From contig MEDY01000139.1 in the NCBI GenBank assembly GCA_001724265.1, positions 1 to 64,000 on the forward strand: a stretch of 64,000 bases of DNA, written 5' to 3'. The notes beneath the pieces are model-generated. The model made no database searches. It worked only from the letters and a program-made list of their open reading frames with translations, and was not told the origin of the DNA. The DNA comes from Rhizaria sp. SCN 62-66 (Eukaryota). Below, one piece after another: positions 1,789-50,157 of the stretch. A program made the position numbers and the translations under genes. The stretch's first letter is position 1; each line of letters starts with the position of its first letter.

Positions 1789-4700
1789 TTATTGGTCATC
1801 GTCGGCGTTAGCATCAACAAATGCTTGAAGTGCCCCGAGTCCACGTTTCAGCGCCACAATACTCAACCCAGCAGCGGCGCTGCCGCCAAACAAACACGTC
1901 TCACGCAAACACGCGGGCCAGTTGGTGGCGCACTTTATAAAGACGAGCTCTAACTCTAATTTATCACGCTGGTCCGAGTTACGCTCTCCAACGCCGCATC
2001 GAGCCTCATTTCGATCAGGCACAAGTTCGTTTGTCTCGGCGGGATCGCTAACCGCGACATCACACCACTGCACAAAGCATGCGTTCACCCCTTGCCGTAG
2101 TGCCCACAGCCACGCGCGATGCCGTTGCGGGTCTGCCATCACCGTGAAAAAGCCCGCGGCAGCGTGACCTAGAATTAGCGCGCGGGATCCAAGTCCCAGT
2201 TGTCCGTAAGCACTTGGAAGCAGCCGTTGTAACTGCAGCACGCGCGCACCAGTATTGTCCTTAGCGTTCCCGCCAGTCTGCGCTTCGCTGGAGTACGCGC
2301 GTGTACCCTTGCAAATGGTGCAATCGATTTCACACGGGCGCAATGCGGCGAGCAATACCCGCACTGTGGCAATGACGTCTTGCGCGCGATGCGTCACAGA
2401 CAGCGACGCCGCGGCGCCCGTAAGCAGAGCGTAGTACGCTGTGCGCGCACAGATAATAACCCGCGTCGTCAACTGTTCGGCGGGGGCACGGCGATGCGCC
2501 GCGAGCAGTGCGTCCACAGCCTCACTATTCGCAGTGACGCACAGCGCGTCGAGCAGCGAGAGCGGTGGCCACGGTTTTGGCGACATGCCACCACTCACAA
2601 TAAGTAGTTCGTAGAACGCTTCTGTGCTTGAGGTCAGCGCTGGCACAAATGCCGTGAACAACGCGATCACAGCAAGTGCTACGGCTTGGCGCCCGCTAAG
2701 TGTACCATCGTTAGTGCCCCCACTGGCAGCGCTGCCGGAGCGCGGCGCGGACACGTAGGGCACGACGTACGGGTCAACATGCTTGTAGACACCAGGCCCG
2801 AGAACAAACGCGGCAGGCGCTTGGCACGCCATGCGCATCAGGTTACCGTGGCGGCAACATGCAGCGACAGTCAGCGGCGCGCCAACTGTGAGTGCCCAAG
2901 CAAATACGGTAGTCAGGGTTGGTGCCTGCTGTTGTTGTGTTGGCTGCGCCGAGCTCGACAGTGTCATGTCAATGATGCCGTCCCCATTAGCATTCTGTGT
3001 TGTAGCGGTGGGAATGGAATTGTTGTGACGCTCAATTGCAGCACATAGGCGTGAAATCATAATTGCGACTCGCGTGTCATAGGCTGCGACAATGCTTGGG
3101 AGTGCGGCAAGCGTGTCACGCACAGCGTTGATGGCAGTGGCGCACGTGGTGGCAAGTGCGTTCGGGGCAATTTCTGCAGGAGTAATGTCGACATTAAGAC
3201 AACAAACATCGTCTAACGTTAAACTTGCTTGAGGACTGGAGTACGCTCTTTCGATCATGCGAGAGACTTTGTCATCAGTGCAGGACTTGGTATCATTCTC
3301 TGACGATTTGTGCAGCGATAGATGCTTTGCCGTGGAGAGGAATTGCATGACTCCAAAAGAAGACACTAGCGACGGCGCCTCAACGCTACGTGTTTTTCCA
3401 TCATTGCCAACGCGTTCAATGCGCGTTACTAGCGATACCAAGCGTGCCGGCAGCGCCCAACAGTGGGCAGCCTGTGGGCTTAGTTGCAACAGTGCGCACT
3501 CAGCGTACGGCTCCAAGACCTCGATGAAGTCCTCCGGTAGCGCACCCGAGGCGATGGCGGTTACAACCGTGCGCACAAGTGCATCGTCACGGTCCAAGGC
3601 AAGCGAGTGGCGCAAAGCAGCCTTGGCGGAAACAGGATCCCAGTCAATGAACGGATGAAGCGCAGTACCTGCAGAACAAGTAAGAGAGTCAACTGATTGA
3701 GTTGATTCAATTTCTGAATCTTGCGCAGTGCCTGTGCTTCCTCTGCTGACACGACTTGTCTCTGAAATGTCCATCGATGTGCGCATTAGAGCATGTTGAG
3801 CTGTGAAACCAAGATCTTTCTGAATCGTGTCCACCGGCGGAATGTAGATGCGAAATTTGCGCTCAATGCAGGGCCACATGAGCACCATTCGCAGTGTCCG
3901 AGCTGCGCGCGCGTGGCCCACAGTGCCCGGCACGCTTACAAGCGCATCATAGCTCGCAAGATACCACGGACCTGGATTGTTGCGACTATGGTGATGTTCT
4001 GCATGTGCGTGACTTAGCTCTTGCTACGGCAGTCCTTGCGCGGGCGCGGGCGGCCGCTTCCTGTCATGCAGCGGCAAGGGCTCCAAGCCCCACAGAATAG
4101 GACTCTCTCGGAAAAAAGCTGCGCGGTCAAAGCAGTCCGTCAGCAGCGCGTTGTGTTTCAACATTGCGGTCACTGTTTCGAACTGTGCGGACCGCAGCAA
4201 GTGGACGAGATCCTCGCGGGTTCCTTGCTTTGAAAGCGGAAGCAAGCCATTGATTTCCCGGGAAATCTTGTCAACGAGACTTTGAGTGAAACGGACCATG
4301 TACGTGAACGTGACAACATTCATCGGCCTACAGGCATCAACGCTCACAGCCTGTCGCTCTTGCGAAGTTGCGATTGCACAACTATGTTCATCTAGAAGGG
4401 TCTCTGCGATGAATAAAGACGAATACATCGATAAATCTTTCATAAAGCCAGAATCTTGCATCCAGCATAGATCATTGCTGCATTCGTTGATATTTGTGTC
4501 CGTGTTTCTCGCCACCCACGCCGAACTGTTGCTGAATGCTGCGATTTTGTTGTTGAGATCAACAACACCACCATAATGCAGGGTGCTCACCACGCGAATC
4601 TTACCGCTCATGACCTGCTTAATCTTCCTTTTCACAGCAGTAGCCGCGCGATGAATATCGCCGGCATCGCTGAACCCCAGCATACGATGCAGATCGCTGC

Positions 4701-6057
4701 CGCAAGAAGCCGCAAGTGCATCGTTTGTTTTCCTCGCCGACGCCGCCCTGCCGTACGACGTCAGAGCCCACAACGCGGCCTCAGTTAGACCGGCTGCGCT
4801 GAACACGCGCGTCGGGGGAGAGCCAGGCGGGTTGGGAACCGCGTCACGCAGCACGAGTGCAAGATTTGGGTATGCTGTCAGAATGCTCTTCAACACCGCT
4901 GGGTCGCGGCCCGCCCACGCCCAGTCATGAATGCATGTCGGCAGCAAAAGCATCTGGGCAGACACAAGGCGGCAGAGAAGCTCGCTGCACATCTCGCTCG
5001 TGTGCGCGCAGGGAACCGCAGAGTCGCGGTGGTGGAAGTGTTGGACACGCACGATGAAGCGCAACACAAGCTGGAAGCAGCGGAAGCACCCACCGAACGC
5101 GGTCCAGTGCAGCAGACGCAGCTGGCTGGGCGGGGCGCTAAGTCGAGCCACCAATGGCGCGCTCACTCTGGAAAGCGGGTCGCTCAGGGTGTCACAGTTG
5201 TTGACATCAGCATCGTCAATATCACCGGTGGTGATATGCGCTGTGTTTCGATCATCAACACTGCTGTTTGTCAGAAATGCAACCATTTCGACATGGCCGT
5301 TGCTTGCTGCAGCAGCAAGTGGCATTGATAAAGGCACGTACCAAGCTGTCGGTTCCGCAGATGCAGTGTAAGGAGATTCGGCAGTGCATGTGGATGACGC
5401 GGGTGCCGGTAGCAGCTGTGCCGGATCTAAGCCCCATTGAGGCGTGCCCAGAGCGTTGAGCGTCGTCGCTAGCTCTTTGTCAGCACGCTCCCCTGGCAGT
5501 TGATGCTAAGGGGCGCACATCGCAGCCCACTGCTGGGGCGTCGCAGCGTTGTACAGCGCGCGCGCGCAGGCGACACGGTTAAGCAGCGCGGCCCACGTGA
5601 GCACGCTGTACCCCATGATGCACTTGCTCCAGCCTGCACCGGAGCGCAATAGCGCAGAGACAACACGCGGAAGATCGAGCCTAACAGCGACGGCGAGTGG
5701 CGTTGACTCCGCGAGCGAGCTTTGCAGCGATCGCGAGTATGGGTTGGCGTGTGTGTACCAGTCTTTGAGAGGCACCGCGTCGTTGATGTAGATATTATAG
5801 CGCGCGGGGGTCAATAACTCATGCGCTGCAGCGATGTAAAACAACACTTCGTCCTCGATGAAAGCTGTGCGGCCGATACCCCCCTGCTTGGCGTACTCTG
5901 CTATCATCTCAGATGTTGCATGAGTGTAGACAACGTTTGCTCTGGAGGTAGATGCGAGACGCTCCATGAGACGCACGAGCGCAGCGGGTTTCACGAGGAA
6001 AGTGGCCAACTCAAGTGTTTCTCCATAAGAGACGGTGCGCCCGTTGATAACGCGCAT
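1789..6057 (-). CDS. Ankyrin-repeat protein (~1420 aa) containing two in-frame TAG codons (5506-5508, 4024-4026)
   Basis: ORFs 5506-6078, 4024-5337 and 1789-3933 share one frame. The gaps between them translate openly except for a single TAG each, and the frame ends at TAA 1789-1791. Ankyrin-like motifs: TPLAVAVRLDLPRVVSALLRSGA, SVLTWAALLNRVACARAL, PLAAAASNGHVEMVAFL, LLHWTAFGGCFRCFQLVL. The start (first in-frame ATG, 6057) is uncertain and an upstream exon is possible. Confidence 0.75.
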
Positions 6058-6718
6058 TCTTCTTCCTGTCCACTTCACGTAGCACCATTAAGCGAATTCA
6101 AGGAGATTGCAGAGATGCGTTGAGGTTTTGAGTGAGGGTTGCGTTAAAAGTGACTTTCACACAATAATAACCACGATGTAGAAATTGTATCAATACTGTA
6201 TGGTACACATACCAGCTGCATATTGGATTCATGATGTATATGTTGCAAATATGTGCATTACATGCCAAAACCACATCGATTTCTGTGTTTGAAAAGTGAA
6301 ATTTTCCCTCACCTTCCACTTCCACCACAAATCAAAAATGACGTGACAAGTGAAGAGACATTACGTCTGGGTGTCATCACCCAGGCCGCCATTCTCTGAC
6401 GTTCGCTGTCTGTCGCTGCAAGAAAGTAGAGTCATTGTACGATACGTACAGAGGAACGCTTATAATACAGAAACCGTGCTTTATTGAAGTGGTTGTTCCT
6501 TCTTTGCGAAGTGTGGCCTTCTTGACACATAAGTTAGATTCCAACAACGTCAATACACGCATAAAACAACAGGCACAGACAGAGACTAATACTATCACAG
6601 GCAAATCTAAATACATCAAATCACAGAGCAATACACATTAAACAAATGCATTTTCACAAATGTACTTCTCTAAATGACAACGAGCCGTTCGCGGGGCGCG
6701 ACAAGGCAAATGTCGTCT

Positions 6719-8564
6719 TTACTTGCCGAAAAGTGTGTTGAAAAAGGCGCTGGTGGCCTTGCCAATGACGGGGTACTTGGCGATCACAACGCTGCCTGCA
6801 GCAACGGCCGCAGCGATAAGCGCCGCAGCAGCGACGCGCCCGGCGGCGCGGGAAATCGGCTTGCCTGCTGCCTAGACCAACCATAACCAGAACCAATCGA
6901 AGCAAACAGTGTTTAGAACAGCAGAGACAGAGAAAGAAGGAGAAATAGTGAGACAGTATCAACACAAGCAAGGACTGGATTCTAGGGGTATCTCTTATTC
7001 AGATGGTTCGCTACATTAAAACGTTGATTGGTGCCCGAAGCGCGAAAACACAGAGAAAATGATTCGTATTGTGAGTATAGTGACGACGTACGTAGATGAG
7101 CGAGCGCTTGAAGCCCGTGTAGGGCGGGTAGCGCGCGGGCATATCGAGGATGTTCTGCTTGTACATGACTGCCTTGAGGTGGGAGAACTCGTCGAAGCTG
7201 TACTTGCCGTGGTAGCAACCCATGCCCGAGTGGCCGACGCCGCCGAAAGGCAGGTTCGAGTTGGCCAGGTGCACGACGGCATCGTTGAAGACGAGTCCGC
7301 CCGAGGACGTCGTGGTCTCGAACAGCGTGCGCACGGCCGCCGTGGTTGTGAAGATGTACATCGCAAGCGGCTTCTCACGGCGCTTGATGCTCGCCACGGC
7401 CTCGGCGGCGTTGGCGACGCGGAGGATCGGCAGGATCGGCCCGAAGAGCTCCGCCTGCATCGCCGCAGAGGCGTGGAACGCGGCCGAGTCGGCGCCAAAG
7501 TCGAGCACGGTCGGCGCGACAAACCGCTGCTCGACATCCACGTCGCCGCCCAGCACGAGGTACTGCTTGTCGGTCTCGACGATCTTGGCCAGGCGCGTGA
7601 TGGCGCCGCCGCCGTTGATGATGCGGCCGAAGTACGGCGACGTCTTAATGCTCGCGGGGCCCTTGGCGGCGTCCGCGTAGCCGAACTCGGTGCTGTCGTT
7701 GGCGCGGGAGGCGTAGAACTCGCGGACGTAGTTGCCGATGCGCGCGACGAGCTCGTCGGCGACGTCGGCGTGCACGAGCACGTGGTCAGGCCGCACGCAC
7801 GTCTGGCCGGCGTTGATAAACGCGCCCCAGGTCAGCCGGCGCGCGGCAATGTCCACGTCGGCGGACTTGTCAACGTACGCGGGGGACTTGCCGCCGAGCT
7901 CGAGCGTGACGGGGGTGAGGTGCGCCGCGGCGGCCTGGAGGACGATCTTGCCCAGCGTGGGGCCGCCGGTAAAGAAGATCTTGTCGAAGCGGCACGCGAG
8001 CGCGTTGGTGGTCGTCGCACGGCCGCCGATGGTGACGGCAAACGCAGTGGGGTCCATGTACTTGGCGACGAGCGCGCCGAGGGTCTCGGAGACGTTGGAC
8101 GAGTACTCGGCAGGCCGCAGCAGCGCGCAGTTGCCGGCGGCGATGGCGCCGACGAGCGGGCCCAGAAGCAGCTGCACAGGGTAGTTCCAGGGCGCCATAA
8201 TGAGCGCCACGCCCAGCGGGTCGCGCTTGACGGCGCTGGACGCGGGCTGGTTGAGCAGGTTCGTCGGCTTGGCCTCGGGCGCCATCCAGTCGTCAAGGTG
8301 GTCGAGCGCCTCCTGGACCTCGTGCTCAACGATATTGAGCTCGATCAGGTGCGACTCGAAGCGCGAACGGTGCAGGTCCGCGTAGAGCGCCTCAGACATG
8401 GCCTCCTTGCCCTCGGTGAGAAGCTTCTTGAGCTGCTGCAGCTGTGCGACGCGCCACGAGCGGCTCAGCGTCACTCCGGAGTCGAAGGTCGCGCGCAGGC
8501 GGTCCACGGTCGACGCAATCTGCGTCGCATCATGCACCACCATCTGATTCGGGGCAGAGCTCAT
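6719..8564 (-). CDS. ALDH3: NAD(P)+-dependent aldehyde dehydrogenase, family 3 (fatty aldehyde dehydrogenase-like) with C-terminal membrane anchor; exons 7092-8564 and 6719-6871
   Basis: Motifs PWNYP, FTGG, LELGGKSP, catalytic-Cys FINAGQTCVRPD, ELFGPILP and PFGGVGHSGMGCYHGKYSF. Intron 6872-7091 (GTACGT...TCTAG). The last exon encodes hydrophobic VAAAALIAAAVAAGSVVIA and ends at TAA. Confidence 0.93.
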
Positions 8565-9083
8565 CTGGTAGTGGCAGTGATAAATTGGTCAAGTGCGATA
8601 TGGTGAGTCAAGAGCCTTGATAGAGACGTGGAGGAGGGGGAGACGACGAGACATAATCTGCACTCACAAAAGGACGGATTTCACCGATATAATCGGCATA
8701 ACCAGGAAAGTGAATATTCCATTCATACAAAACAGTAGAAGTAAAATACAATTTGATTCCTCCGATGCCGTTCTTTGACAATATTCGGAGGCAACATGTA
8801 TTCTTCGTACTAGATTTTGGGTCAGAGACGATTCGGTGAAACCCAAGCCGCGCCGAGGCATCGATCGAGGTCGTGATTCCATCGTACATCCCACTTGACT
8901 TTCACCGTCATTTGAGTTGTTTCGCAACACCCATGAAAGATACATATGCCAACCACACCCTTATGCAATTATCTCACCAGCGGACTCTCATCTGCGCAAC
9001 ATCTCTACTCCTCAGAATCTAGACCACAAACTCGATTCCAGCAAGTCACACTGGTTGGCTATCGAACTTTATCACCTTCAAGC

Positions 9084-9955
9084 ATGGCTTCAGAAACATC
9101 TGATGCTGTCGCGACCGCGGTGACATCGGCATGCGCCCTGCTGGACTCTGCCAAGACTGCGTACATTGATGGCGAGGCCGCGTTCGACGCGAACAGGGCC
9201 GCGCTGCACGCGGATTTACGCGAGCAGGCTCTTGCAGCGGCCGCGCCTCTGCCCGCGCTGCGCTCCGACCTAAGCGCGCTCTCGACCACGCGCGCCGCAG
9301 AGCACGCCCGCGCCGCCGTGGTGCATGAGGACCTGAGCGCGGCAGCAAACACACGCAACAGGCTGCTCGCAGTGCTGGCGCAGTCGACACGCGCCGCCGA
9401 CGAGGCTGAGGTACGTTCTAGATATCAACTCATCGCAAGCAAGATATGTACAGGCGGAGAGCATTGTTATGGTGGTTTTTCTATGTGGTCTTTATTGACT
9501 TGTATGTGCATACGCCTCAATATGTGACGAACAGTCTTATCACTATAATCCTATGCACTTGTCACATTCGCTCTTGCACTTCATTCTATTGCTTACGCAT
9601 AGGCCTCCGTGCTCCGCCGACGCCTGCTCGAGCTCAACCGCTGCCTCCCGTTCCGTCCTCCAGCCGACGCTGACACTGCCGCTGCCGCTGCTGCTGATGA
9701 CTCTGCTGCTGCGCTAGGCGGCTTACTTTTCCTCCACCCGTCTCTGCTGCGGCCAGCGCCGGCCCCCGCGGCGCCCATTCTCCCACCCGCGGACCTCGCG
9801 GTGCGCGGCTTAACTTTGAACAGCAGCATGCCAACTGCCAGTGCTGGTAACGTCACCAGCAACAGTGCGAATGATGAGAGCGCGCTGCTGTATTCGCCCG
9901 TGTTCTCCCCTTCGCGCCAGCCCTTCGGCCACAGCGACACCACTGCCGCCACCAG

Positions 9956-9989
<34 letters not shown>

Positions 9990-12422
9990 GACACTGGCGT
10001 CGCCGGCGCTGGCGCCGCTGCGGGCCCTGGCAGCGGCGCTGGCTCTGTGCCGCTGCCGCTGCTGTTGGACCCCACCGTGACGGCTTCGACAGCGCTCATC
10101 ACCGCCGCTACAGCAGCCGCCACCGCCGCTGTCACGGCCGCGACCGCCGCCAACAGCAGCCACAGCAACAGCAACACGCAAAGCTTCAAGACTGCCGACA
10201 CCGCCGACGCCGACTTGAGCGCCTCCCAGCGCCCCGCGCTGCGTCTGCTGCCGCTGCGCGTGGTTGACGTTCTGCTCTCGTTCCTGGCCGCTGGCGAGCT
10301 GCAGCGGTGCCAGTTGGTGTGCCGCGACTGGCACCGCGCCGCGTTGCGGTCCTCGGCGTGGAAACTCACTCTGTACCGCTACACTGAGGCGCGCGCGCTG
10401 CAGACCGCGCTGTCTCACAGCGCTGCCTCGGGCAGCGGGGGGCAGTGGCGGGGGTCGGGGGCGGGCGCGCGGTCCGCGGGGGCTCTTGCATCGGGCAAGG
10501 GGCGCGGGTCGCAGTCGCGGCCGAGCACGGGGTTCAACAGCAACGATGAAGGCGATGATGTGGAGCTCACGGTGGCCACACCGCACTCACAGCCACAATT
10601 GCAGTTACAGTCGCAGTTCCAGCTACAGCCACATCTGAAGCAGAAGCCTTCCGAATCTGAACTGGGGGCGAGCGCCGCCGCTGAGGCGAAGGCGGGTGCA
10701 CTGGGTGTAGACGTTGAAACGCCTGAAGTTTGGCCTGCTGATAGCATCGAAGTCAAACCGCTCGACGCTACGCTGAGCAACACGGCAGCGACGGCTGAGA
10801 ATGCCGCCGACGACGATGAAGATGATGACGGGACTGACCCTGTTCCACGCACCATCGCGAAGGCAGAGGCTGCTCTCACCGACAGCTCGGCTGACTGCAA
10901 CAGCGGCTTCACGACTGAAGTTCCGGACTTGATTGTCCTCGACACTTCCGTCGCTAACCTCTGTCTCCCTGCACTCGCGAGCAAGAGTGTGTTGAGTCCG
11001 GAGCACACTGCGAGTGTGACGGTGGGCCAGCTTGGCGAGCTCCCCGTGCCCGGGGTCGTTTTGGCCCGCGCTTCGCTGTCGGTGCCTGCGACGACTGCGC
11101 ACGCCGCGCTGCTCGCTGTGGCGCGCACACAGGGCCTGCGTCCCGCTCACACTGATAAATCGAGTCGCCACAGTCAGGGCGAGCCTGTCGCGGCAGGGCA
11201 GTCGAAGGGCGGGTTGAGTAGCGCCGTGGGCAGTCCGTCTAAGAACCCCCTGAGCCGCCAAGATGAGGTACTTAGCCAGGAGTTCGCTCCTTACATGATG
11301 CACCCAGCCATGCTCCCCGCAGCCGTGCGCGCTCTGGCCAGTGCAAGCAACGTTGTAAACGGCAGCGCCAATAACAACATCAACAGCAGCATCACTGCGA
11401 CTGTCACACTGGTGCCCGACAGCGTTGTGACGAGCTACGCGCACACCTTCGGCCTCCCTGCGACTCTCGCTAACAGTACTTGCGGTAACAAGAACGCCGG
11501 CGACCAGCAGCCTCGGACTCAGAGCGCGCGCTCAAGCTCTGGCTCACTGGTTCCCAGCGTAAGCGATGGCAGCACACTGCAGCAGCAACAGGGCCGCACA
11601 CACACGCATTACACGCTGCGGCTCTATGCGGCCGCGGCGAGCGAGTTCGAGGTCACGGCCGAGGGCGTCGAGGTCCCTGATACGGCCTGCGCGCGCGGGC
11701 CCTCAGAGGTTTATAATCTATTCGACCCAGCAACGCGTGGCAGCACCGCGCACAACGCCGCGTTACTCGCGCAAATCAGCCCCGACGGCGCCGAGCCTCT
11801 TGACGCCGCTGCCGCGATCGCGCACTGCGCCGCGAATCCCACTGGCATTAAATCACCATCGTCTTCGCGCGGTGTGTCGCTGCGGGTGTGCTCATTGCAT
11901 CCTGGTTCTGACGCGGCCGAGCTGGCGCTGTGCCGGTCGCTGCTGGACCAGCAGCAGCACCTGACGACAATCCATCTGGACCGCGCGCGGCTCAAGTCGC
12001 GCCTTGACGCCTCCAAGGGCGTCAAGGAGCAGCTTTCCACTGCGCTGGCCGCGGCCAAGCGCGACGCCGCCGCCGAGGAAGAGGCCGCGGCGGGGATCAA
12101 GAAGCAGCTCGTGTCCGACGGATGCACTAACGTGTTTCTTACCGAGCAAGTTGCCGCGGCGCGCGCGCGGCGCGACCAGGCGCGCGCGGAGGCCGCCGCA
12201 GCGCTGGCGCAGGGCGCGGCGGCCGTGGTGGCGCTCGAGGCCCGCATTGGGGCAGTGGAGCGCAACAAGAACGAGCAGGAGAAGACTTTTTTGGAGCTCA
12301 AGATGCACCGCAAGCTGCTTTCGAAGGAGGTCAAGTTGCTGCAGGGCGCGCTGGCCGAGGAGAGCACGCGCACGGCGCGCCTGCAGGCGCTGCTTGCCTC
12401 TGCGAACTCACAGATGGGCTGA
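9084..12422 (+). CDS. F-box domain protein with C-terminal coiled coil; exons 9084-9410 and 9603-12422
   Basis: F-box motif LRLLPLRVVDVLLSFLAAGELQRCQLVCRDWHRAALRSSAW (~10240-10362). Heptad-like C-terminus (...HRKLLSKEVKLLQGAL). Phase-0 intron 9411-9602 (GTACGT...CATAG). Ends at TGA followed by AT-rich sequence. Confidence 0.75.
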
Positions 12423-13674: not shown

Positions 13675-14072
13675 CTGCACAGAGCCAGGATTAATGATAA
13701 TAGAGTAAACAGTTTAGAATAATATGTAGTCACTTATATTGAATTATGAAATCTGCTTCACACTTCTAACCTTAATTGTCATAAGACGTAAATCGTGATT
13801 GCGGTGATGACTCAAGAGCTAGTGCAAACGGCTGGACGGTCTCTCAAAAACAAAGTGCGTTAAGCGAGTTCATCTCCCGCACCTTAATGATCGTCACTTG
13901 AGCTATCAACGCAAGTTCTAGATAATAACACGCGTTCCACATAATTTACAATTTTAAAATTACTAGAATAATTGATTACTGTCTCACACACTCCACTTTC
14001 CGTGTGTCGCCCTTGCTCCTCCATCTCGGACTCCTTGTCTGCTTCCTGCTCAACGGCCTCTCCGTCCAGTCG

Positions 14073-27243: not shown

Positions 27244-27275
<32 letters not shown>

Positions 27276-36745: not shown

Positions 36746-36777
<32 letters not shown>

Positions 36778-39700
36778 TGCTGCTGCTAACGGCGAAGCTG
36801 GCAACGACGGCGGCGACAACGTGTCCCCGCTGCTCAGCACCGGCTCGCGGCGCATCACCGCGCCCGCGGCCACCCTCGCCGCCGCCACTGCCGCCGCCGC
36901 CGCCGCCGCTGCCGCCGCCGCCGCCGCTGCGGTGTCCGAGTGCCCGCGTCATTCGCAACCTCACACGCACGCGCACGCGCAGCCCGGCGGCGCGGGCAAC
37001 GGCCGCGCTGGCGGCGCGATCGTGCACGCGCGACATTGCCCTCAGCACCGCCGCGCCTCTGTCGCTGGCTCCACGGGCAGCCAGCCCGGTGGCGTCGGCA
37101 ACGGCGGCGGCAGCCAGTCGCGCGGGCCCGTCATCGCGGTCATCCAGTGCATTAACAAGCGCGGCAGCCGCACGATGCCCGACGACGTCTTCTGCGGCAG
37201 CAACTACGTGCAGGCCATCGCGGACCGCGTGATCAGCGAGCTCGCCAACGGCGGGTCCTCGTACACCGGCCCCAACAGCGCGCTGCGCAACGGCGGCGCC
37301 GGAAGCGCGTTCTCGTACGCCGCTGCTGCTGAGAACGGCGTGTGCGACGCGAATCCCAACGGCAATGGCATCGCGACGAGCAGCGTCAAGAGCGGGCTCA
37401 GCGGATTCGCCTCGTTCCGCCGCCCTCCGCCGCAGACGCAGTCGCAGTCCGTCCAGCAGCAGCAACAGCAGCTGCAGCAGCTGTCGCCCGCCAGAGCTGC
37501 GCTCGTCGCGCCTGCGCCGCTGCCGTTTGGCACTGCTTCACCGACCGGCAACGGCAGCGCCACCGGTATTAAGCTGAATGACATCGCGAATTTCGGGTTC
37601 GGCGACGACCGCGTGAGCAGCGTTTACCTGCCCACCCACACGTCCGACGCCGACACCGCCGCGGCGGCCTCTGCGGCGGCGATGGCGGCGGAGGCCACGG
37701 CGTTCATGCGCCGCGGCTCGCTCCCGACTCTGCCCACGCACACCGACGCCTATAACGACAACGGCGTCGTGGCGGTGAACGCCACCGAGGATCGCCTGCG
37801 CGACAACGCCACCGCGGGCACCAGCGACAGCGGGTCTGTGGCCGCACCGCTGCCTTTCAGCGTCGACAGCGGCTCTGCGGGCGCGCTGGCACTGCCCGCC
37901 GGCTCTCATCTGGCGCCGTCGCCGCCGCAGATGCACTCGCGCTCGCACAGCCAGTCAGGCCTGCCGTCGCGCGCCGTCGCGGGCTCGCCGCTGCCGCTTG
38001 CGCGCAACCCGCAGACGGGCGCCGTCAAGGCCGACTGGATCCCCTTCACGGCCGAGGATGCCGACGTGCTGTCGGCCATCTGCCAGCACTTGGTGCAGGT
38101 CGTGCGCCGCTACGCCACAGAGGTCATCCTGGACACGATCAAGGACTCGAGCAACGACGTGGTGTCGTCGCTGATGGAGCTCTACTCGCGCGACAAGAGC
38201 CGCTACGCGACGCCTGCGCTCACCAGCGGAACGGCGACGCCGGCCATCACCTCCGCGGGCGCCGGCGCCGCCGTGGTCGCGCCCGTTGCGCTGGGCTCTG
38301 CCAGCTTCAGCGTGCCGTCCTACTCGGGCGCGGCGGGCTCCTCCGCGGCCGCGGCGGCGGCGGCCGTTGCGGCGGGGCTACCCGGCGCGCGCTCCCGGAT
38401 GACGCCGCACCACCAGCTGCCCGGCTTCGCCCGCGGTGCGTCGGTGTCCGTCGCCGCCGCCTCGGCCGCCGCGTCCACCGCCGCCGCCGCCGCCGCCGCC
38501 GGGGGCGCGCTGGCGCCGACGGGCAGCGACGCGCTCGGCGGGCTCTCGGTCGCCGCCGCCGCGGCTGCTGCATATGCGCGCTCTAAGACGGCCAGCGCGC
38601 GCAACGCCGACGCCACCGCGGCCGCCGCTGCTGCTGCCACAGCTGCCACGGCGGCGGCGGCGGCACAGGCGGCGGCGGCGCAGGCGGCGGTCGCTGCGGC
38701 GGCGGCTGCGAACAACAACAGCAGCCGTGCCGGCGATGCGTCCGTGGCGGTGACGACTGACGCGCTGGCCGGTGGCGATGTCGCGCACTCGGTCTCGGCC
38801 TCCGGGGCCGCGGCCGAGGCCGGCACCACTGCGCCGTCCGTCGCCGCCGCTGGCCTCCACGGCCACGGTCAAGGTCAAGGTCAAGGTCACGGGCAGAGCC
38901 GCGGCGCGATCATGGTGCCGGCCAGCGCGACCAATGCGTCCGCGGCGGCAGCCGCGGCGGCGCGCCCGTTCCTGCTGCACAACAACAACGGCAACGACAG
39001 CCCCGCCACGGGTGATACCGGCAGCGTGAGCCTGAGCGGCAACGGCGTCGTCATCAGCACGATGCAGGCCGCGCAGCAGCGGCCGCACACGCGCCCCGTG
39101 TCTCCCGCGTCGTCGTCTTCCGGCGCTGCGTCAGTCACGCTCGCGGCCTCGGTCGCCGCGACCACGCTGCACCAGCACCTGCATCAGCACCAGCACCAAC
39201 AGCGCCCGCCGCGCACGGCCACGCTCTCCGGCGGCAACGCGCGCACCGCGGCGCTCTCGCAGCTCGAAAGCCGCGACAACAGCAGCGTGACCGTGACCGC
39301 GGGGCGCGCGTACTCGCCTCAGCCCGTCGCGGCGTCGGTCGTGGCCGCCACAGTCGGCTGTGACGATGCGCGCAGTCTCCGCGCGGGCGGCCGCGGCCAC
39401 GGCGAGGACTGCGTGCACGGCGGGCTCGCCAGCAGCGGCGACGGAGACGGCCACCTGGCCTCTGAGCTCGCCAGCGCTGACGCCGCCGACTCGGTGTATG
39501 TGCACGCGCCCTGTCGCGACGGCGACGACGGCAAGCTCGGCAGCGGCGACGCCAATGATGGTGATGACTACTACGACAGCATCAACATCAACACCGGCGG
39601 CGTCGCGGGCACCGTGCGCGGGTGCGACGACAACGGCCGCATCGACGACGACGGCGACGACGACAACGACAACGTGTCCGGCATCGCCGACCACCTCTCT

Positions 39701-41427
39701 GTGCGCACGCACGCGCCCGGTCACCTGCACCGCCGCCCCAAGCGCGCCCCCTCGGTCGCCAACTCGACCAACTCGACCGCGGCGGCGGGCAACGACAACG
39801 GCAGCGGCGCCGCGGTGGTCGCCATCAACCGCAACGAGAATGTGCGGCTGACGACGCGCGGCGACCAGACCTGTCTGCGCATCGCGTCCTCGTCGTCCTC
39901 GGCGGCGGGCGGCGCCGCGGCTACGGACGCGGCCGTCGCGGGCGGCGCCGTGGCGGGCCTTGCGCCGACCATTGCCTCTGTCGCCGCGGAGGACGACGAC
40001 GACGACCACCGCGCGAACGGCGCCGTGCGCGGCCGCCGCCAGCGCAACGGCGGCAACACCAACGTCGATGATGATGACGATGACGACGACGGCGGCAGTG
40101 CTAGTGGCGACGACGACGCCGGCGACGACGACAACTACAACACCGGCGAGATGAGCGGCGACGGCGGCGACAGCTACTCGCTGCACAACCTCCGCAGTGG
40201 CGCGGCGCACCTCCACAGCAGCAGCAGCTCCAACCTTAACGCGCTCCCCAGCCACAGCGGGCGTAACGGCGACAGTGGCGCGGCCGGCGTGTCGGTGGGC
40301 GACGCGAGTGCGCTCGTGTACGATGGCAACGGCGTGCGCTACCCGCCCGCGGCGCCCGCGTCGGTGCGCCTGGCCACCCACAGCGGCAAGCAGCGCCGCA
40401 GCACTGGTGGCGTCCACGGCGGCGGCGCCGGTGCCGGCGGCGCGGGCAGCGGCGGCAGCGTCAGCGGGAACCCCGGCCGGTCGCGGCCCCGCGCGCACAC
40501 GCACGCGCGCGACACGTCGGCCTACTCCGCGACCGCGACTGTCGCGGTCAACGACGGCGCTGCGGCCGCCGACAACGCGGTTGCGGCCGCGCCAGCGCCG
40601 TCGGCGAGAGCGGCCGACGGACTGCCGCTGCAGCATCAGCACCACCGCAACCGCAGCAGCGGGCGCTTCGGCAGCACGCTGACGGCGGCGGGGGGCAGCC
40701 CCGTCACGCCGGGGCTTGGCCTCAGCGGCCGCCCGGGCTCTGGCGCCGTGGGAGCCGCCGCGGGCGGGCTGCGCACGGGCATGATGTCGGTCGGCCGCGG
40801 TGAGTCGAGCCTCTGCGGCGACACGCCCACGGCGAACGACCACGACGACGACGACGAGCACGACGGACTGAGCGACAACGGCGTGGGCCCCACGCCCGTG
40901 CGCTCGCCGTCGCCGTCGTACTCGTTCTTCTCCGCTGTGTCCTCGTCCACGGCGCACCACGATGCGTACCCGGCCGCGCACACGCTCACGCACGCCGCGT
41001 CGCTGCGCCCAGCGCCCTCGCTCGCCGCCGCGCCGCCCGCGCGCGCCTCGGCCGCCGCCGCTGCCGCAGTGCTGCTGCCGCCGCGCGCGCAGGATTGGCA
41101 CGCGGGCGGCTCGCGCGCGGCGCCCGCGGCAACAACCACAGCTGCGACCAAGGCGGCCGCCGCCGCTGCCGCTGCCGCGCACGCCGCTGCCGCCGCCGCC
41201 GTCGCCGCTGCTGCTGCCGCCGCGGCCGCCGCTGCGGAGGCTGAAGCTGAGGCCGAGGCCGAGGCCCAAGCCGTCGCCGCCGCCGCCGAGGCCGCCGCCG
41301 CCGCCGCTGCCGCAGCCTCTGCGTCCGCGTCAATCTCCGGCAGCAGCCTGCCTCCCGCCGCAGTGGCCTCTAAACCACTTGCCTCGTCGACGGCGGCGGC
41401 GGCGGCGGCGGCTGACAGCACGCGCGC

Positions 41428-41510
<83 letters not shown>

Positions 41511-43678
41511 TGCTGCTGCCGCGGCTGGCCAACGTCGCGAGCGACGGGCTGGGCACTGACGACACGGACATCGTGCCCCCCGCCTCGGCCGCCGCAGACG
41601 CCGCCGCCACGGCCGCGTTTGCCGCCGCGGCCGCCAACCCCAGCGTCAGCGCCGGCGCCGGCGCCGGTGCCGCTCTCGCGGGCCCGGCCGCTCTCGATGA
41701 CGCTGAGTCGGCCGGTGCGGCCGCGACGACGGGCACGAGCGTGACGCCGTGGGCGGGACAGCCGATCGCGCGCGGCACGGCGTACGCGCCCTTCGCGCTG
41801 CCCTTCCGGGCGGGCTTCTCGCTGCAGTGGCCGCCTGCGGACGCGCGCGTCGATGCAATGCCGCTGCCCGTGCAGCGCCATTCTGACGGCGCATGTAGCA
41901 ACAATAGCAACAACAACAACAACGGCATCAGCAACAACAGCAGCAGCTGCGTCGGCGTCGGCGGCGGCATGAGCGCCGAGGAGGAGTATGCGGCCGTGAT
42001 CGCGGCCGCGCCCGTGGTGGTGGTGACCAAGCCTGACCCGCGCAGCGCGCGCTCGCGCCACCGCCGCGCGGCCTCGTTCTTCGCGGTCACCGCGTCCAGT
42101 TACTGCTCGTCCACGTCGGGGCTCACCTACGGCAGCAACGACGGCGACAACAGCGACAGCCGCGACATGACCGCGGCGGCCAGGGGCCCGCTCCCGGCGC
42201 TGTCGCTGGTGCCGGGGCTGTGTCCCGCCGCGCTGGCGTCGCCGACCTTCGACCCGTTCCTGTACTCGGACGCGGACCTCGCCGTGGGCGCCTACGCCGC
42301 GCTCGTGCACGCGGGTGCGTTGTCGTTGCTCAAGTGCAACGCTGCCACGCTACAGAACTTCGTGCTCTCCGTGTCGGGACTGTACCGCAATAACCCGTTC
42401 CACAACTTCCGCCACGGATTTTCCGTGTTTCAGTTCTCCTTCGCACTGCTCGCGCACGCCTCCGAGTCGCTGCCCGCCTTCCCGGAGCTCCCGTTCTGCT
42501 CCTTTAACCACGGTAGAAGCAGCGGCATCAGCGCGGCCGCAGCGGTGTCGCCGTGTGACGCCGACGCAGCAGCCGCCGCAGCCAACGCCGCGGGCGCGGC
42601 TGCGGCGGAGGAGGCGTCGCTGCCTATGATCCCCGTCCCCGTGGCAGCGGCGAATCCACTGTGGGCGCTGCCGGCGCTTGACGCGTTGTGCCTGCTACTG
42701 GCATCCTTTTGCCACGACATCGACCACCCGGGTAACACGAACATGTTCGAGACGGCGACCAACTCGCCCATCGCGACCATGCACAACGACCTGGCCGTGC
42801 TAGAGAACCACCACGCATGCACGACCAACATGCTGCTGCGGCGCCCCGACAGCGCCATCTTCTCCGCACTGCCCGCGGCCGAGCAGCGCGGTGCGCGCAG
42901 CATGATCACGCAGGCCATTCTCGCCACGGACATGACGGCGCACATGGACTCGCTCAAGAAGATCTCCAGCTACGAGTCCTTTTCCTCGGGCTACGACCTC
43001 GCCGTGGCGGGCGACCGGCAGGCGCTGGTGAACCTGGTGGTGCACACGGCGGACCTGAGCGGCCAGCTCTACCCGCTGCCCGTGGCGCTGCTGTGGGAGC
43101 GCGGCATCAGCGAGGAGTTTGCCCGCCAGGCCTGCATGGAAGAGCTGGCCGGGCTCGCGCCGCTGCCGTTCATGAAGAACCTGGACCAGATGCGCCCGCG
43201 CTGCCAGGGCCAGGTCGGCTTTATCGACTTCGTCGTCGCGCCCTGGTGGCGCCACCTCTCGCGACTGCTGCCTGAGATGAACTGCTGCGCCGTGCAGCTG
43301 CGCGAGAATAGGGACTATTACGCCGCTATGGTCCAGAGCATCGACGCAGACACCGCGGCCGCCGCCGAGGCCGCAAAGGCCCAGGCGGCTGCGGACGGCG
43401 ACGCTGCGGCTGCTGCGGCTGCCGCTGCCACTGCTGCAAATGTGGCTTAGCAGGCCGCTGGTGCAGCCGCGGGCAGCGACGGCAACAAGGATAAGAGCGG
43501 CCCGCAACAAGACGCCGCCGCTGCTGCCGCTTCTGGAGGCGCGGGTGCCAAGGCACCGGGGTGCGCGCATGGGGGCGAGTGGGTGACGCAGGACTTCTGG
43601 CAGTGCAAGCAGCGGCTGGAGCTGATTCCCGGTCCGGTGCAGCACGAGGACGACTGCGACAACTGCGATCGCCCGTAA
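32102..43678 (+). CDS. Giant GAF-domain class I cyclic-nucleotide phosphodiesterase (~3858 aa) with in-frame TAG at 43448-43450
   Basis: GAF motifs (LNIPDAYADPRF...RSVLTVPV...VAVIQAINK; LLIPDAYQDPRF...TGYRTRSMLCMPI). Catalytic motifs YRNNPFHNFRHG, CHDIDHPGNTN, VLENHH, ILATDM, HTADLS, EEFARQ, QVGFIDFVV. After the TAG, 75 more GC-rich sense codons run to TAA 43676-43678. Confidence 0.9.
41429..41509 (+). repeat. Perfect (CAG)27 coding microsatellite (polyQ) in the PDE gene
   Basis: 81 nt of uninterrupted CAG, in frame as Q27. Confidence 0.95.
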
Positions 43679-44344: not shown

Positions 44345-46705
44345 TTAGGCGCCAGAGAGCTTGACCTGCTCGAGGCGCTCGAGGAAGCCAGGGTTGGTCT
44401 TCTCGTTCTTGACACGATAGATGCGGACCATCCAATGCTCGGAAGTGAATGCCTCCTCAATGTAGTCGAGCTTGATGTCCTTGTCTCCGACCTCGGAGTG
44501 GCGCACGCGGTCATAGCCATTGTTGCCGTGGCCCTCGGCGAACTTGTGGTAGCACATCTTGTACATGAGCGAGTTGCGCATGCGGGGCGACGCCGAGCGG
44601 TCAATGCGGTACCCGCCCTGCGCGTTGTAGTAGTCGTTCTCAACAACTTCGGGAAACACGCCACCGGAAATGCGCACCATCCACAGGAACTTGTTGATAT
44701 CGTCGCTCGAGTACCCAATGCGGCCGCCGAAGACGACGAGCACGTAGTCGACGTCGAGCGCACGCATGACTTCGTACGCGCGCTCCTCGGTCGACGCCAT
44801 GGCGAGGCCGACGGTGGCGATGTGCGTGTTGTTGCGCGTGTTGTTGTCGACGATGACAGTGCGGTTGGCCATCTCGGTGATCTGGTAGCCGTAGTCCCAC
44901 CAGCTCATGATGCGCGCGTGCGCGGGCGTGTTGTGGCGCAACCACGTGTAGCCCTCGCGGAAGTCGTCGAAGTAGATGCGCTCACCGCTGCCGCCGTTGG
45001 CCATGAGCACGATGGACGGGGACGAGTACGCGGTCTGCGTCACCCACGTGCAGTGGATCACGTAGAAGTAGAAGAGCACGGTGAGGAAGCCGATGACGAG
45101 CATGGCGATGAGCGACGACACGCGCGGGCGGCCAGTCACCACAGACGCGGGCGCCTTGCCGGGCGCGTTGGTCGTCGTCACAGCAGCCTTGCTGCCCGAA
45201 GAAACTGAGGAGGAGTCGTCGCTGGCGTTGGCAGGAACAGCCTTGCCGAGCGCGTTGGCGGTGATAACGTCGCAGTAGGTGGAGAGGAGCACGTTGACGC
45301 CGACGCCGGCGAGCACGCACGCGATGGGCGTGAGCACGAGCACAAGACGCACCATGATGGACGCGAAGTAGGACGCGAACACGGCGTAGATGAGGGCGAA
45401 GATGTTGGCGTCAGTGAGGTGCTTGAAGCAGAAATACATGCCGACGGGGACGAAAAAGACGACGCAGTGCAGGTCGAAGAAGAACGTCGTCCATGGCGAG
45501 GGCTGGTGCTCCGACACGGACTTGACAATAGCGATGTTCGAGGTCGCGCCGAGCAGCGAGAGCAGGCGTGCGGTGAAGAACGGGACCTTGCCGAGCGCGG
45601 CGGCGACGACGAGCAGCGACACGGCGGCGATTACCAGCAGCACGGTGGAGCGGAACAGCAGCTGGATGTGCTTGGCAGAGAGCAGAGTGCGAAGCCAGGA
45701 GACAAACATGAAGACCTGCATGAGGCCGAACATGCCCAGCGCGGCGATGTGCTCGGGCGACGTCGAGAAGGGCTGGAAACCGACGAACTGGACCTGCATC
45801 GACATCAGCGTGCCCAGCACGTAAAACGTGCAGTAGGAGACATACAGACGGCTTGAGAAGCGGCCGGCAATCATGAGCGCAAAGGCGTGCATGGGAATGA
45901 TGTTGATAATGAAGATGTAGCCACCCCACGCAGCGACCATGTTGAAGTAGCCCAGCGCGGCGGCCGCGGCCCATAACATGGAGCCTGTGTTGACTGCCTT
46001 GACCCAGAGGTAGAAGCAGAAGACGAGCGCGAAGATGGCAACGGCTTCGTTGTCGAAGGAGCCGGCGACGGAGCGGGAAATGTAGCCCGGCGCAACGGAC
46101 ATAAAGGCGGCGGCGATAATGCCCGCGCCGCCGTTCCAGACCTGAGCCGTGAGGAGGTACGTGGCGAGGACCGTGAGCGAGGCCATGAAAGGCGAGAGGA
46201 AGACGCAGACGTTGCGGATGTGCGCAGTAAAGTGCAGCACGTTGTGCAGAAAGTGGAAAAACAGCGCGGCAGTCCACATGAGGCCCGGGTAGACGGTGCC
46301 ACCGACGAAGCGGCCGATAGGAACCCAGGTCATGTCGTCGAACCAGTTGTGGAAGGCGTAGAAGCCGTTCTCGACGAGGTACTTGGTGGAGCGGAAGTTG
46401 AACTGCGGGTCGAACTCATGAATAAGAGCGCCGTAGGTCAGAGGAGCAAAGAGACGAACACAGAAAGCTACACAGCAGCGGAGACACGAGGGGGAGAGAA
46501 GGATCCGGGTGTGAGTTAGGAGCTTCTATCGGAAAAGCGTGCAAATGTTTGTGGATTATGGCGGAGAAAAGGACGTACCAACGGTGCAAAGACCGAGAAG
46601 GATAACGGCATGAACGACAAACTCACTGCGACCGATGAAGGTCGACAGGAAGCCGTCGTTTGTCTGGTCGGATCCCTTTTTGGGAGAAGCGGCGACCACC
46701 GACAT
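44345..46705 (-). CDS. STT3: Oligosaccharyltransferase catalytic subunit STT3 (749 aa); exons 46579-46705 and 44345-46467
   Basis: IHEFDPQFNFR, GRFVGGTVYPGLM, SRSVAGSFDNEAVAIF, SVSEHQP, SWWDYGYQI, VDNNTRN, DINKFLWMVRI. Intron 46468-46578 (GTACGT...TGTAG). Ends at TAA. Confidence 0.96.
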
Positions 46706-47634: not shown

Positions 47635-50157
47635 TTAGCAGCGAATATGCACTGCCTATCCAATAGCACCACAGCACCTCCTCGACAAAGCCGCCTCAAA
47701 GTGCTTCACAATTGCAGCGCTGAAAAGTTCCCGCTTACGATTGTCATCTGCGCGAGCCTCACCCACGCGAGCATCGTCATAATAAGCGTCGTTGTCCTCC
47801 CACGCGCCTTTTGGCACACACGACACGACGCGACCAACGGGGACCGCGCCACGGAGCAGGCGTTTCGGGCACGGCTTAAAGACAATGAACCACGGTGAGT
47901 CATGCGATTCGAACACGTTTAATGAGGGAAGCGCACTGCGGGGGTACATCAGCACCGTGCCGACCGGGTAAATCACAGAGGAGGCGCCCGCGCTCGCGTC
48001 AGCATGCGCAGAGTCCGGTGCGTACTCGCCGTAGACTACGTCAGTTTCAGGAAGCAATCCCGGTGGGGTAAAACAAGGAACGTCGGAATGCAAGCGGAAT
48101 AGAGCGAGGAACGGCAGCGACGCAGCAGTTTCAACGAGACCCTGAGGCACAAAACAAGTGTGGAGCCTGGTGCCGAGGGCGCTGGTGGACGCTGCCACAC
48201 GGAAATACGCGGCGTTACACGGAAACCTTGTGTCGTCGATCCGGATCCCCATTTCGTAGTCGTTCTGCCGCCGGTCAGAGTGGTCCAGATACATCGAAAA
48301 ATTCAAGTCTAACCCCCTGTACGTGTGCTCAAAGGCCGCGACCAGAGTGCATTCACGCGCCCTGGCCTGTAGCAGAGACAACAGTGCGGGGGACGGCGTC
48401 GTACGAGCGCGCGATTGCGGAGAGTGTGCTTCATTATCGACATCACCATCGTCACAGTCGCGGTTCTCGTCCTTCGCATCTGGTGGCGGGCAGCCACTTT
48501 GTTCCAGAGTACACGAGATGTATGCATCAAATGCGGCACGCCAATCCTTTTGCGACTGCATAAACACCTGAAGCTCTGCAAGCGTTTGCAGGCGAAGCTG
48601 TTCCGTTTCTTCGGTATCCGGTGCAATCACTGCCATCCTTGCAAGGAGAGCCCGTAGCTGCGCCAGATCTTGCATCACAAGGTCGCCACCGCTCGTTTGC
48701 AGGCACTCATCGTAGCGCAGCAGCTCAAGTGCTTGTAACCCATTCTCAGCAATGAACTGTGCCAAAAAGGGGTTCCGCGGCGCAGCGCCCCTATTCCGCA
48801 CTGCAGGGCCAGGCGACGTGTCACTGGTACTGATCATAGTGCGCAGTACACGCAAAACGCGTGCTACTTTCTTGCCCGTCATGCAATCCAAGGCAGAACG
48901 ACTTTCGCGGTCGTGATGCGTAAGCACAGGATACAAAAGATGCAAACAACAAATCTTCATTGCATCCTTGGCGAGCAAGTCCCGCGCTGCAAGTGTCACA
49001 TCAGGGGCCGATGTGAGAATGTTATCAAACAACCACACCGCGCCGCTGAGCAAGTTGCACGCAAACCGGGAGTTCCCACTGGACTTGTGGTGAGTCCAGT
49101 AAAGGATGTTCGCAAGGCCGCGCGCTTGGGTGATGCGTTGCGCAAACTCAGGGAGTTTGGTTGCTAACTCCGCGAACAGCTCAGTCGCGTTCAGCAGGTC
49201 TTCATAAGAGGTAAACTGTTGTGCATCGACTTGCATAAGAATACGATCAAGGCGAGGCTGCGTGAATGCGAGCGCAACCGTGTCGTCGTCAAACATGTGG
49301 AGATAAAATAGAAGATTTTCTAGGATCCAGCTGTCGGAGATATCAAACATATCATCAAAGCAATTACTGACCACAAAATCCGCGAGATCGCGGCGGCGCT
49401 CTGCGTTATAAGAGTCGTCATCTCCATCAGACTTCAACAAACGGCGCAGCGCAACGACAGACTCAACGTAGACGTGCCGGTCCCGTCCTGAGAGTGACGC
49501 GTGACGCTCAAGAGTGCCGCGGAGCAGAGGGACAAATGCAGACACAGCGGTGTACGGAAGGCGGGACATGATAACCGCACCGGAGTCAAGTGCGGTGATA
49601 ATGGTGGAGATTTCGGTGTGGTAGGCATCGCAGTGAGTCCCAGATGAGCCCAGACGGTGGCACTCTTGCTCATCAATGTCGCGCATGTGCGAAAGCAGAA
49701 GCTCCACTGCAGTCTCCCTCGTAGATAGAGATAAGATCGAGGTCTTTGCAACATCAGCCACAACATGGAGAAGCAAGTGCGTATCTGTGTCGACCTCTTT
49801 CCCAACGACATGAGCGAGGAGCTTCTCAACTACGCTGCATTCGGCGAGCAAGTCGTTTCCACTGAAGACAATGTCGCCAGATTGCGCCGGGAAACAGTCA
49901 GACAGTCTTTTAAGCAGAGCAACAATGAGGCGAAGTCGCCTATTGCCGACGTCTACGGTGCCGCAGGGCTCAAGCGATTGCAGGAGGAGTGGGATGACCC
50001 CACCCTCCTGGAGCACGCCGATTGCGCCCTCAGGACATCGAGCAATCGACTCCGTGAGTTGAAATATAGCAGAGTCGCCAACCTCAAGCGTTTTAAGGGA
50101 TATTATACCGGATACCGCATTGTGGAGCTACTTGAGCTAGACTTTCGTACGTTCCAT
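47635..50157 (-). CDS. Unknown ~840 aa protein: ARM/HEAT-like helical N-terminus plus degenerate cyclophilin-like C-terminal domain; in-frame TAGs at 50137-50139, 50128-50130 and 47656-47658
   Basis: The frame of ORF 47656-50016 extends upstream through two TAGs to ATG 50157 (MERTKV*LK*LHNAVSGII...EGGVIPLLLQSL) and downstream through a TAG to TAA 47635-47637. Domain calls are by eye only. Confidence 0.6.

Follow-up and report, generated by a model that had tools for sequence, protein, structure and literature searches.

In-frame TAG codons interrupt four genes of a 64-kb window

We analysed a 64-kb stretch of nuclear DNA from a eukaryote (contig MEDY01000139.1, positions 1 to 64,000; the window) for which an initial annotation had proposed a variant nuclear genetic code, with UAG read as a sense codon while UAA and UGA remain stops. 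GC content ranges from 47 to 76% per 2 kb, the genes are very long and intron-poor with AT-rich spacers between them, and the same stretch is present in bioreactor and wastewater metagenomes from several studies. We recognised 12 genes (Table 1), and the seven in-frame TAGs that had been reported in four of them are all where they were said to be, in the frames of four long open reading frames (ORFs). Read through TAG, each frame reaches a TAA and meets no TAA, TGA or frameshift before it, again as first described. We argue below, mainly from a related species, that UAG very likely specifies an amino acid when this lineage translates its nuclear genes.

Gene 1 (1,422 codons from the ATG at 6057 to the TAA at 1789-1791, with a Pfam match to Ank_2) carries two of these TAGs. 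Its frame stays open for 493 codons after TAG 5506 (P = 1.5e-8) and for 744 codons after TAG 4024 (P = 1.6e-12), and 1,312 codons without TAA or TGA follow TAG 22126 (P = 7e-13), with all P values computed from the off-frame density of TAA and TGA. At these three sites the ORF pieces abut, TAG alone standing between them, with no spacer; the first in-frame ATG lies 61, 46 and 101 codons past 5506, 4024 and 22126, respectively. A codon-usage score trained on the other genes was positive in frame on both sides of the TAGs (0.10-0.36 bits per codon, against -0.49 to -0.71 off frame) and negative in all frames of the spacers. In the 100 codons past 22126, which contain no ATG, the in-frame score was 0.52 bits per codon. 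GC content at the three sites stays at coding level; it drops past nine of the 11 real gene ends measured. That TAGs 4024, 5506 and 22126 are internal to genes is beyond reasonable doubt.

An internal position is also well supported for TAG 43448. The 75 open codons after it are not significant on the openness test alone (P = 0.28); this tail scores 0.37 bits per codon in frame versus -0.33 and -0.77 in the other frames, and its GC content of 0.68 falls to 0.37 directly past the TAA, like that of other gene ends. In the lineage-specific gene P0002, for which a Pfam search gave no family, the ATG at 50157 has a good context (A at -3, G at +4). The 148 codons past TAGs 50137 and 50128 contain no ATG, yet score 0.19 bits per codon versus 0.21 for the rest of the gene. 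We saw no credible donor or acceptor for splicing out the two TAGs, the upstream sequence being purine-rich, and both are probably internal; a further exon ahead of 50157 is possible. TAG 47656, from which GC content falls onward, could be either a sense codon or a true stop.

Table 1 Genes, open reading frames, TAG codons and introns of the window
Feature	Position	Strand	Remarks
Gene 1, ankyrin-containing, lineage-specific	1789-6057	minus	TAGs 5506, 4024
ALDH	6719-8588	minus	in-frame TAG 7011 intronic; ends TAA
F-box protein	9603-12422	plus	no in-frame TAG; ends TGA
Weak Rpp20/POP7-like	12871-13713	minus	no in-frame TAG; ends TGA
HCCS	14148-15270	plus	no in-frame TAG; ends TGA
Ank-Fic giant	16663-26067	plus	TAG 22126; ends TAA at 26065
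ClpB/Hsp78	26541-29615	minus	no in-frame TAG; ends TAA
SCO1	30104-31812	minus	no in-frame TAG; TGA at 30104
GAF-PDE giant	32102-43678	plus	TAG 43448; TAA at 43676
STT3	44345 to beyond 46578	minus	in-frame TAG 46526 intronic; ends TAA
P0002, lineage-specific	47635-50157	minus	TAGs 50137, 50128, 47656; TAA at 47635
Cyclase, 4,025 codons	51236-63313	plus	no in-frame TAG; ends TAA
ORF of gene 1	1789-6087	minus	TAGs 5506, 4024
ORF of Ank-Fic gene	16663-26067	plus	TAG 22126
ORF of GAF-PDE gene	31952-43678	plus	TAG 43448
ORF of P0002	47635-50256	minus	TAGs 50137, 50128, 47656
TAG	5506-5508	minus	gene 1, residue 194 of ORF translation P0001; context CCT TAG CAT
TAG	4024-4026	minus	gene 1, residue 688; context CCG TAG CAA
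TAG	22126-22128	plus	between ankyrin and Fic parts; context CCG TAG TCG
TAG	43448-43450	plus	PDE Ala-rich C-terminal tail, 75 codons ahead of TAA
TAGs	50137-50139, 50128-50130	minus	6 and 9 codons past the only upstream ATG (50157)
TAG	47656-47658	minus	P0002, six codons ahead of TAA
ALDH last intron	6872-7091	minus	GTACGT...TCTAG; contains in-frame TAG 7011
STT3 5' intron	46468-46578	minus	GTACGT...TGTGTAG; contains in-frame TAG 46526
HCCS 5' intron	14179-14323	plus	GTACGC...CCCATAG; exon 1 ATG at 14148
SCO1 introns	30747-30936 and 30383-30599	minus	flank middle exon

A related species carries more TAG in the same gene

We searched gene 1, with TAG read as glutamine, against 1.84 billion representative proteins, which returned the window's own three pieces and six weaker matches. 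A separate search for full-length homologues gave none. One of the six matches, P0011 (654 residues, 35% identity), belongs to a third organism; as one protein it can be aligned both before and after TAG 5506, with a gap in the column of the TAG itself. Using an alignment of gene 1 and the fragment P0008, we fetched two metagenome contigs, L001 and L002. L002 and the window derive from one and the same organism (99.96% identical); L002 contains both gene 1 TAGs. L001, a contig of 4,071 bp, carries the orthologue of gene 1 from a relative, with 45.6% identity over 1,303 aligned residues. Both contigs came from one metagenome scan, and the window organism and its TAG-rich relative may live together.

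L001 is a single frame from end to end, with 6 TAG, 0 TAA and 0 TGA among its 1,356 codons (the probability of finding neither TAA nor TGA is 8e-21). Its other two plus-strand frames contain 8 and 11 TAA, 9 and 9 TAG, and 32 and 40 TGA. TAG is thus hardly avoided in frame in the relative, whereas TAA and TGA are absent. We next compared the ratio of nonsynonymous to synonymous substitution rates (dN/dS) between the window and L001, which was 0.34, 0.33 and 0.34 in the three segments bounded by the window TAGs and 0.35 overall (1,296 codons). These even values indicate that selection on the gene 1 protein continues across the TAGs. The TAGs of the two species occupy eight alignment columns, none of them common to both; the nearest pair is two columns apart.

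The database fragments P0005-P0010 are proteins that standard gene callers cut at TAGs. Three of them, predicted with the bacterial code, end exactly at TAG 1 (P0010), TAG 4 (P0009) and TAG 5 (P0008) of L001, and the start of P0010 coincides with a gene 1 start at M11 of the ORF. For the region around TAG 22126, a homologue search brought up pieces of the window itself and unrelated ankyrin proteins, and nothing else. Taken together, the evidence from relatives (L001, dN/dS, P0011 and the fragments) effectively rules out pseudogenes, separate genes and errors as the source of the TAGs.

Gene ends, codon counts and introns

All 12 genes end in TAA (8) or TGA (4), and none in TAG. We counted stop codons in ten genes (16,286 codons, a set that leaves out P0002) and found 0 TAA, 4 TAG and 0 TGA in frame, against 131 TAA, 124 TAG and 569 TGA in the two off frames; P0002 itself contains 3 TAG, 0 TAA and 0 TGA in frame. 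TAG usage in the window thus amounts to 7 in about 17,100 codons (0.04%), and is roughly ten times higher in the relative (6 in 1,356). The genes that carry TAG have low GC content at third codon positions (GC3), and those free of it in frame include the conserved, high-GC3 genes for ALDH, ClpB, STT3 and HCCS, as well as the cyclase.

Four of the 12 genes have spliceosomal introns, AT-rich and of the GT-AG type: ALDH, SCO1 (two), HCCS and STT3. The models rest on homology and frame logic. The donors of all five introns are GTACGT or GTACGC, and so nearly invariant, and a stretch rich in pyrimidines stands ahead of three of the five acceptors. These AT-rich introns lie in otherwise GC-rich, nearly intron-free genes, and those of STT3 and HCCS sit at the extreme 5' end, where they cut off a tiny first exon. 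TAGs 7011 and 46526, which are in frame but were not among the seven first reported, are intronic and therefore carry no information on the code.

The final exon of ALDH (6719-6871) ends in TAA, scores 0.60 bits per codon and encodes a hydrophobic sequence resembling a tail anchor; a contig match from data set X6 breaks off at 7091, fitting the splice site (the joint itself is not among the matches listed). Joining the STT3 exons yields ...LGLCTV/AFCVRLF..., and the ORF part aligns with human STT3A from residue 25. The main ORF of HCCS has its first ATG at codon 205, but the Pfam domain begins at residue 31. Eight identifiable genes had been described as uninterrupted and as ending in TAA or TGA. 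Their stops are as claimed, that of ALDH once its last intron is removed; the description as uninterrupted does not hold for ALDH, SCO1, HCCS and STT3, which have introns. We also tried intron models that would remove the internal TAGs and rejected them: 22126 and 43448 have no donor-like site upstream, and the loose candidates at 4024 and 5506 have a coding-like GC content (0.56-0.57) and cover sequence that is conserved with L001.

The TAGs are kept in independent assemblies

Contigs from a different study (X3; 3500-8456 and 21070-22500) differ from the window solely at position 4022 and keep its TAGs, and a contig from X4 (3500-6816) shows three differences, none at a TAG. In DNA, TAGs 5506 and 4024 are thus confirmed by X3, X4 and L002, and TAG 22126 by X3. 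A contig from a polyA RNA library (X5; 3965-4227) carries TAG 4024 unchanged, as does a contig from X6 (5434-5584) for TAG 5506; both contigs may be DNA. Two of the strain differences lie close to TAG 4024, and both change a residue to Arg: CAA to CGA at 4022, directly after the TAG (X3 and L002), and CAT to CGT at 4067, 14 codons ahead of it (L002).

Residues opposite the TAGs are polar or small

In the alignments of gene 1, the eight columns with a TAG pair it with R/A, A, N, K, P, G/G, R and a gap, and in none of them is the partner hydrophobic. When we summed BLOSUM62 scores over these columns, G, R, A, K, N, S, Q and E scored between +4 and -6, and Y, L, I, F and W between -21 and -27 (Leu -22). 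Two of the L001 TAGs fall on the first x, a variable position, in the ankyrin motif LL-x-x-GA. We tabulated this position in 68 motifs from the ankyrin proteins fetched with the region around TAG 22126, where it is D in 24, E in 18, A in 9, K in 8 and L in 1. The pattern of UAG at leucine or other hydrophobic positions of homologues is thus not seen here, although eight non-conserved columns make this a weak test. The same columns do not single out Gln, Glu or Lys, as polar and small residues score alike and no column is conserved. Of the amino acids with a tRNA that a single anticodon change would convert to CUA, Glu, Lys and Gln would fit and Leu, Tyr and Trp would fit poorly; this is only a lean, and a weak one because it draws on eight columns of which none is conserved. 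The initial annotation had likewise placed no TAG at a conserved domain position.

UAG as a probable sense codon and the alternatives to it

Only the translation of UAG, UAA and UGA being retained as stops, fits all findings, among them a dN/dS of about 0.34 throughout gene 1, the continuous alignment of P0011, the open frame of L001 and the 12 gene ends; the proposal of the initial annotation is upheld in this respect. In-frame UAG lies in coding sequence under selection, and UAA and UGA never occur in frame and do end genes. Most likely this is a further case of a known but rare kind of change, in which UAG alone among the nuclear stops becomes a sense codon, and the comparison with L001 makes it most likely that the change extends to at least one related species. 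In mechanistic terms, a cytoplasmic tRNA with the anticodon CUA would pair with UAG and not with UAA, and eRF1 would recognise UAG weakly. The 64-kb window contains no tRNA genes, and eRF1 is not encoded in the window, L001 or L002.

Several observations weigh against this conclusion. None of the TAGs occupies a site that eukaryotes conserve, and translation is thus inferred from selection. The strain polymorphisms of gene 1 (seven, of which four are synonymous) are too few to test selection. The RNA evidence consists of assembled contigs only, and an X5 contig (14162-14590) runs unspliced through the predicted HCCS intron; as this intron is retained, the X5 contigs may be DNA or pre-mRNA, which leaves room for splicing or editing of the TAGs. 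We give such contigs little weight, as they are no reliable guide to expression level, strand, splicing or editing. The rarity of TAG (0.04% of codons) would fit inefficient decoding, and with only 12 gene ends at hand, UAG could have two meanings if translation does stop at 47656 or, with lower probability, at 43448. Finally, the codon contexts are biased. A proline codon (CCN) precedes TAG at five of the 13 sites in the window and L001, against a background of 6.0% (P = 6.5e-4), including all three of the strongest window sites (5506, 4024 and 22126) and positions 1002 and 3321 of L001, and C follows TAG at eight of the 13 (background 25.6%, P = 6.6e-3). A proline codon before a stop and a C after it are poor contexts for termination, and eRF1 may thus still compete at UAG; the bias may reflect selection for contexts in which termination is poor.

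These observations feed the alternative that survives best, which we consider unlikely: UAG would be sense at some sites, helped by context, and a stop at others, through an ambiguous or transitional code or near-cognate readthrough. The scarcity of TAG, the two context biases and the position of 47656, six codons ahead of a TAA and where GC content begins to fall, would all suit such a dual role. Six TAGs in the 1,356-codon gene of the relative would, on the other hand, all but abolish the full-length product if decoding fell much short of complete. At none of the 12 gene ends is UAG needed as the terminator or TAG the sole possible end; this is a small sample, and 47656 and 43448 could be stops before open sequence. 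We found no stimulating RNA structure downstream of 12 TAG sites (z -1.5 to +1.3), and the context statistics were spotted post hoc on 13 sites.

Under the standard code, the TAGs could also be stops between adjacent genes or lie in introns or untranslated regions (UTRs), which we judge very improbable. Introns do exist in these genes, and two in-frame TAGs are intronic; as the STT3 and HCCS introns occur close to the 5' end, 50128 and 50137 could belong to a 5' intron or UTR, and 47656 could be a true stop. At 4024, 5506 and 22126 this reading meets pieces without a spacer, stretches of 46-101 codons without ATG and a GC content at coding level, unlike that of real introns and spacers, and TAG flanks are conserved at the protein level with L001 and P0011. 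At 50128 and 50137 it meets purine-rich upstream sequence that offers no good donor, and a well-placed ATG at 50157.

We give slightly less weight still to the notion that the standard code applies and the TAG-bearing genes are pseudogenes or were recently inactivated. CAG to TAG would be expected to be the commonest nonsense change in GC-rich coding DNA, and the genes concerned are lineage-specific and low in GC3. Loss of function is hard to reconcile with purifying selection on either side of the TAGs, with the lack of any frameshift, TAA or TGA in 1,422 and 1,356 orthologous codons, and with eight TAGs of one stop type in eight different columns of two species. The TAGs are also stable in three further assemblies, and four of the 12 genes in a single 64-kb window would have to be dead. 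That the TAGs are assembly or sequencing errors, or are edited in RNA, is next to negligible, as we found no support for it, X3, X4 and L002 have the same TAGs and differ at only one to three positions elsewhere in several kilobases, and the X5 (3965-4227) and X6 (5434-5584) contigs carry TAG, with the proviso that they may be DNA.

Placement of the organism

Among named protists, the closest STT3 sequences were those of Bigelowiella (60% identity), Spongospora (57%), Amorphochlora (56%) and Nonionella (56%); named animals covering at least 90% of the query reached 53-56%, and several metagenome sequences were closer, at 64-89%. We built a quick LG+G4 tree of this single gene from 33 rows, top matches only, with many eukaryote groups missing. 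The window falls in a clade of metagenome sequences on the side of the chlorarachniophytes and one foraminiferan (SH-aLRT 85), with Spongospora on the opposite side. On STT3, the window organism is probably a rhizarian, a placement that we treat as a lead because it comes from a single-gene tree of top matches.

A scan of viral contigs with STT3 returned nothing, and an ESM Atlas search with it gave no taxonomic lead. The scan of genome contigs yielded 25 loci, which are archaeal AglB-like genes and eukaryotic contamination. The best of them (L018, on contig C2 of G001) is an intron-rich eukaryotic STT3 on a 2.38-Mb contig in a metagenome-assembled genome labelled Actinomycetota; this contig is eukaryotic DNA binned into a bacterial genome. 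We rejected L018 as a close relative, its STT3 exons being 33-71% identical to those of the window, and eRF1_1 had no match in G001.

Comparison with known codes

Nuclear code changes are rare, and those that separate UAG from UAA are rarer, with a handful of lineages given in PMC5304391 and PMC11687900. There, UAG alone is read as Leu in Rhizaria sp. exLh, as Gln in Iotanema and as Ser in Scotinosphaera, and it is also the only codon reassigned in Protocruzia and in several phyllopharyngean ciliates. The closest parallel is exLh, a member of Sainouroidea in which UAG means Leu and UAA and UGA are stops; 384 UAGs in 71 genes lie at conserved Leu positions, and the terminators are 56 UAA and 15 UGA (PMC5304391). 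As in exLh, UAG alone is reassigned here, UAA is the main terminator (8 TAA, 4 TGA), UAG is scarce in highly expressed genes and the organism is probably rhizarian too. The predominance of TAA at 8 of 12 gene ends despite a GC3 of 0.6-0.9 is unusual for a GC-rich genome, and also recalls exLh. Unlike the heavy use of UAG in exLh, only 0.04% of codons are UAG in the window, and in place of conserved Leu sites we find Leu in one of 68 motifs at the ankyrin position and a BLOSUM62 sum of -22.

Iotanema spirale, a member of Fornicata, reads UAG as Gln and uses UAA as its main stop (PMC5304391). It shares with the window organism a change limited to UAG, and Gln would suit the polar sites here; it differs in being an unrelated anaerobic fornicate, whereas the window encodes a ClpB of mitochondrial type along with HCCS and SCO1. 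Protocruzia tuzeti and phyllopharyngean ciliates, also with UAG as Gln (PMC11687900), are again unrelated lineages in which UAG alone has changed. In the green alga Scotinosphaera UAG is Ser (cited in PMC11687900), and in Oligohymenophorea sp. PL0344 UAA is Lys and UAG is Glu (PMC11687900, PMC10553269). In both, UAG is uncoupled from UAA, and the sites here could accommodate Ser or Glu; both are lineages other than that of the window, and PL0344 reassigns UAA as well, which is the main stop here. The ambiguous codes of Condylostoma and Parduczia (PMC4967479), karyorelicts (10.1101/2022.04.12.488043) and Blastocrithidia (PMC12153298), in which a stop codon is sense or stop by context, are the model for a dual UAG; they involve UAA and/or UGA and use the sense codons frequently, unlike the rare use of UAG only in the window.

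Neither this lineage nor another rhizarian case turned up in our literature searches. A more far-reaching reading, which we hold as less likely than not, is that the window represents a hitherto undescribed group of wastewater protists, uncultured, rich in GC, poor in introns and probably rhizarian, in which UAG may have moved to a polar amino acid, independently of or differently from exLh, and perhaps at an early or incomplete stage. The early stage is proposed because of the roughly tenfold difference between the two species, the absence of UAG from highly expressed genes and the contexts that terminate poorly. Another example, from a GC-rich protist with mitochondria, would strengthen the case that UAG and UAA can be uncoupled, and if both lineages are rhizarian with different meanings of UAG, the change would have occurred repeatedly within one group. 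Two related species that differ tenfold in UAG use are already at hand, as is genomic DNA; for exLh, Pánek et al. had no genome in which to search for the tRNA (PMC5304391). If the two species do represent different stages, the codon-capture and ambiguous-intermediate routes would become directly comparable. In practical terms, standard gene callers cut the proteins of this organism at every TAG.

Further features of the window

The POP7 gene has a weak Pfam match only (Rpp20, E = 0.017), and ClpB is of the mitochondrial type, with HCCS and SCO1 encoded in the same window. The first ATG of the GAF-PDE gene lies at 32102. The Ank-Fic ORF has 3,134 codons and its first ATG at codon 278, and thus stays open for 277 codons (16663-17494) ahead of that ATG; the gene likely has either another 5' exon or a start codon other than ATG. 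The three proteins of 3,100-4,000 residues (Ank and Fic, 16663-26067; GAF and PDE, 31952-43678; and the cyclase, 51236-63313) are swollen by low-complexity runs of Ala, Ser, Gln, Asn and His. Genes for the synthesis and the breakdown of cyclic nucleotides lie within 20 kb of each other.

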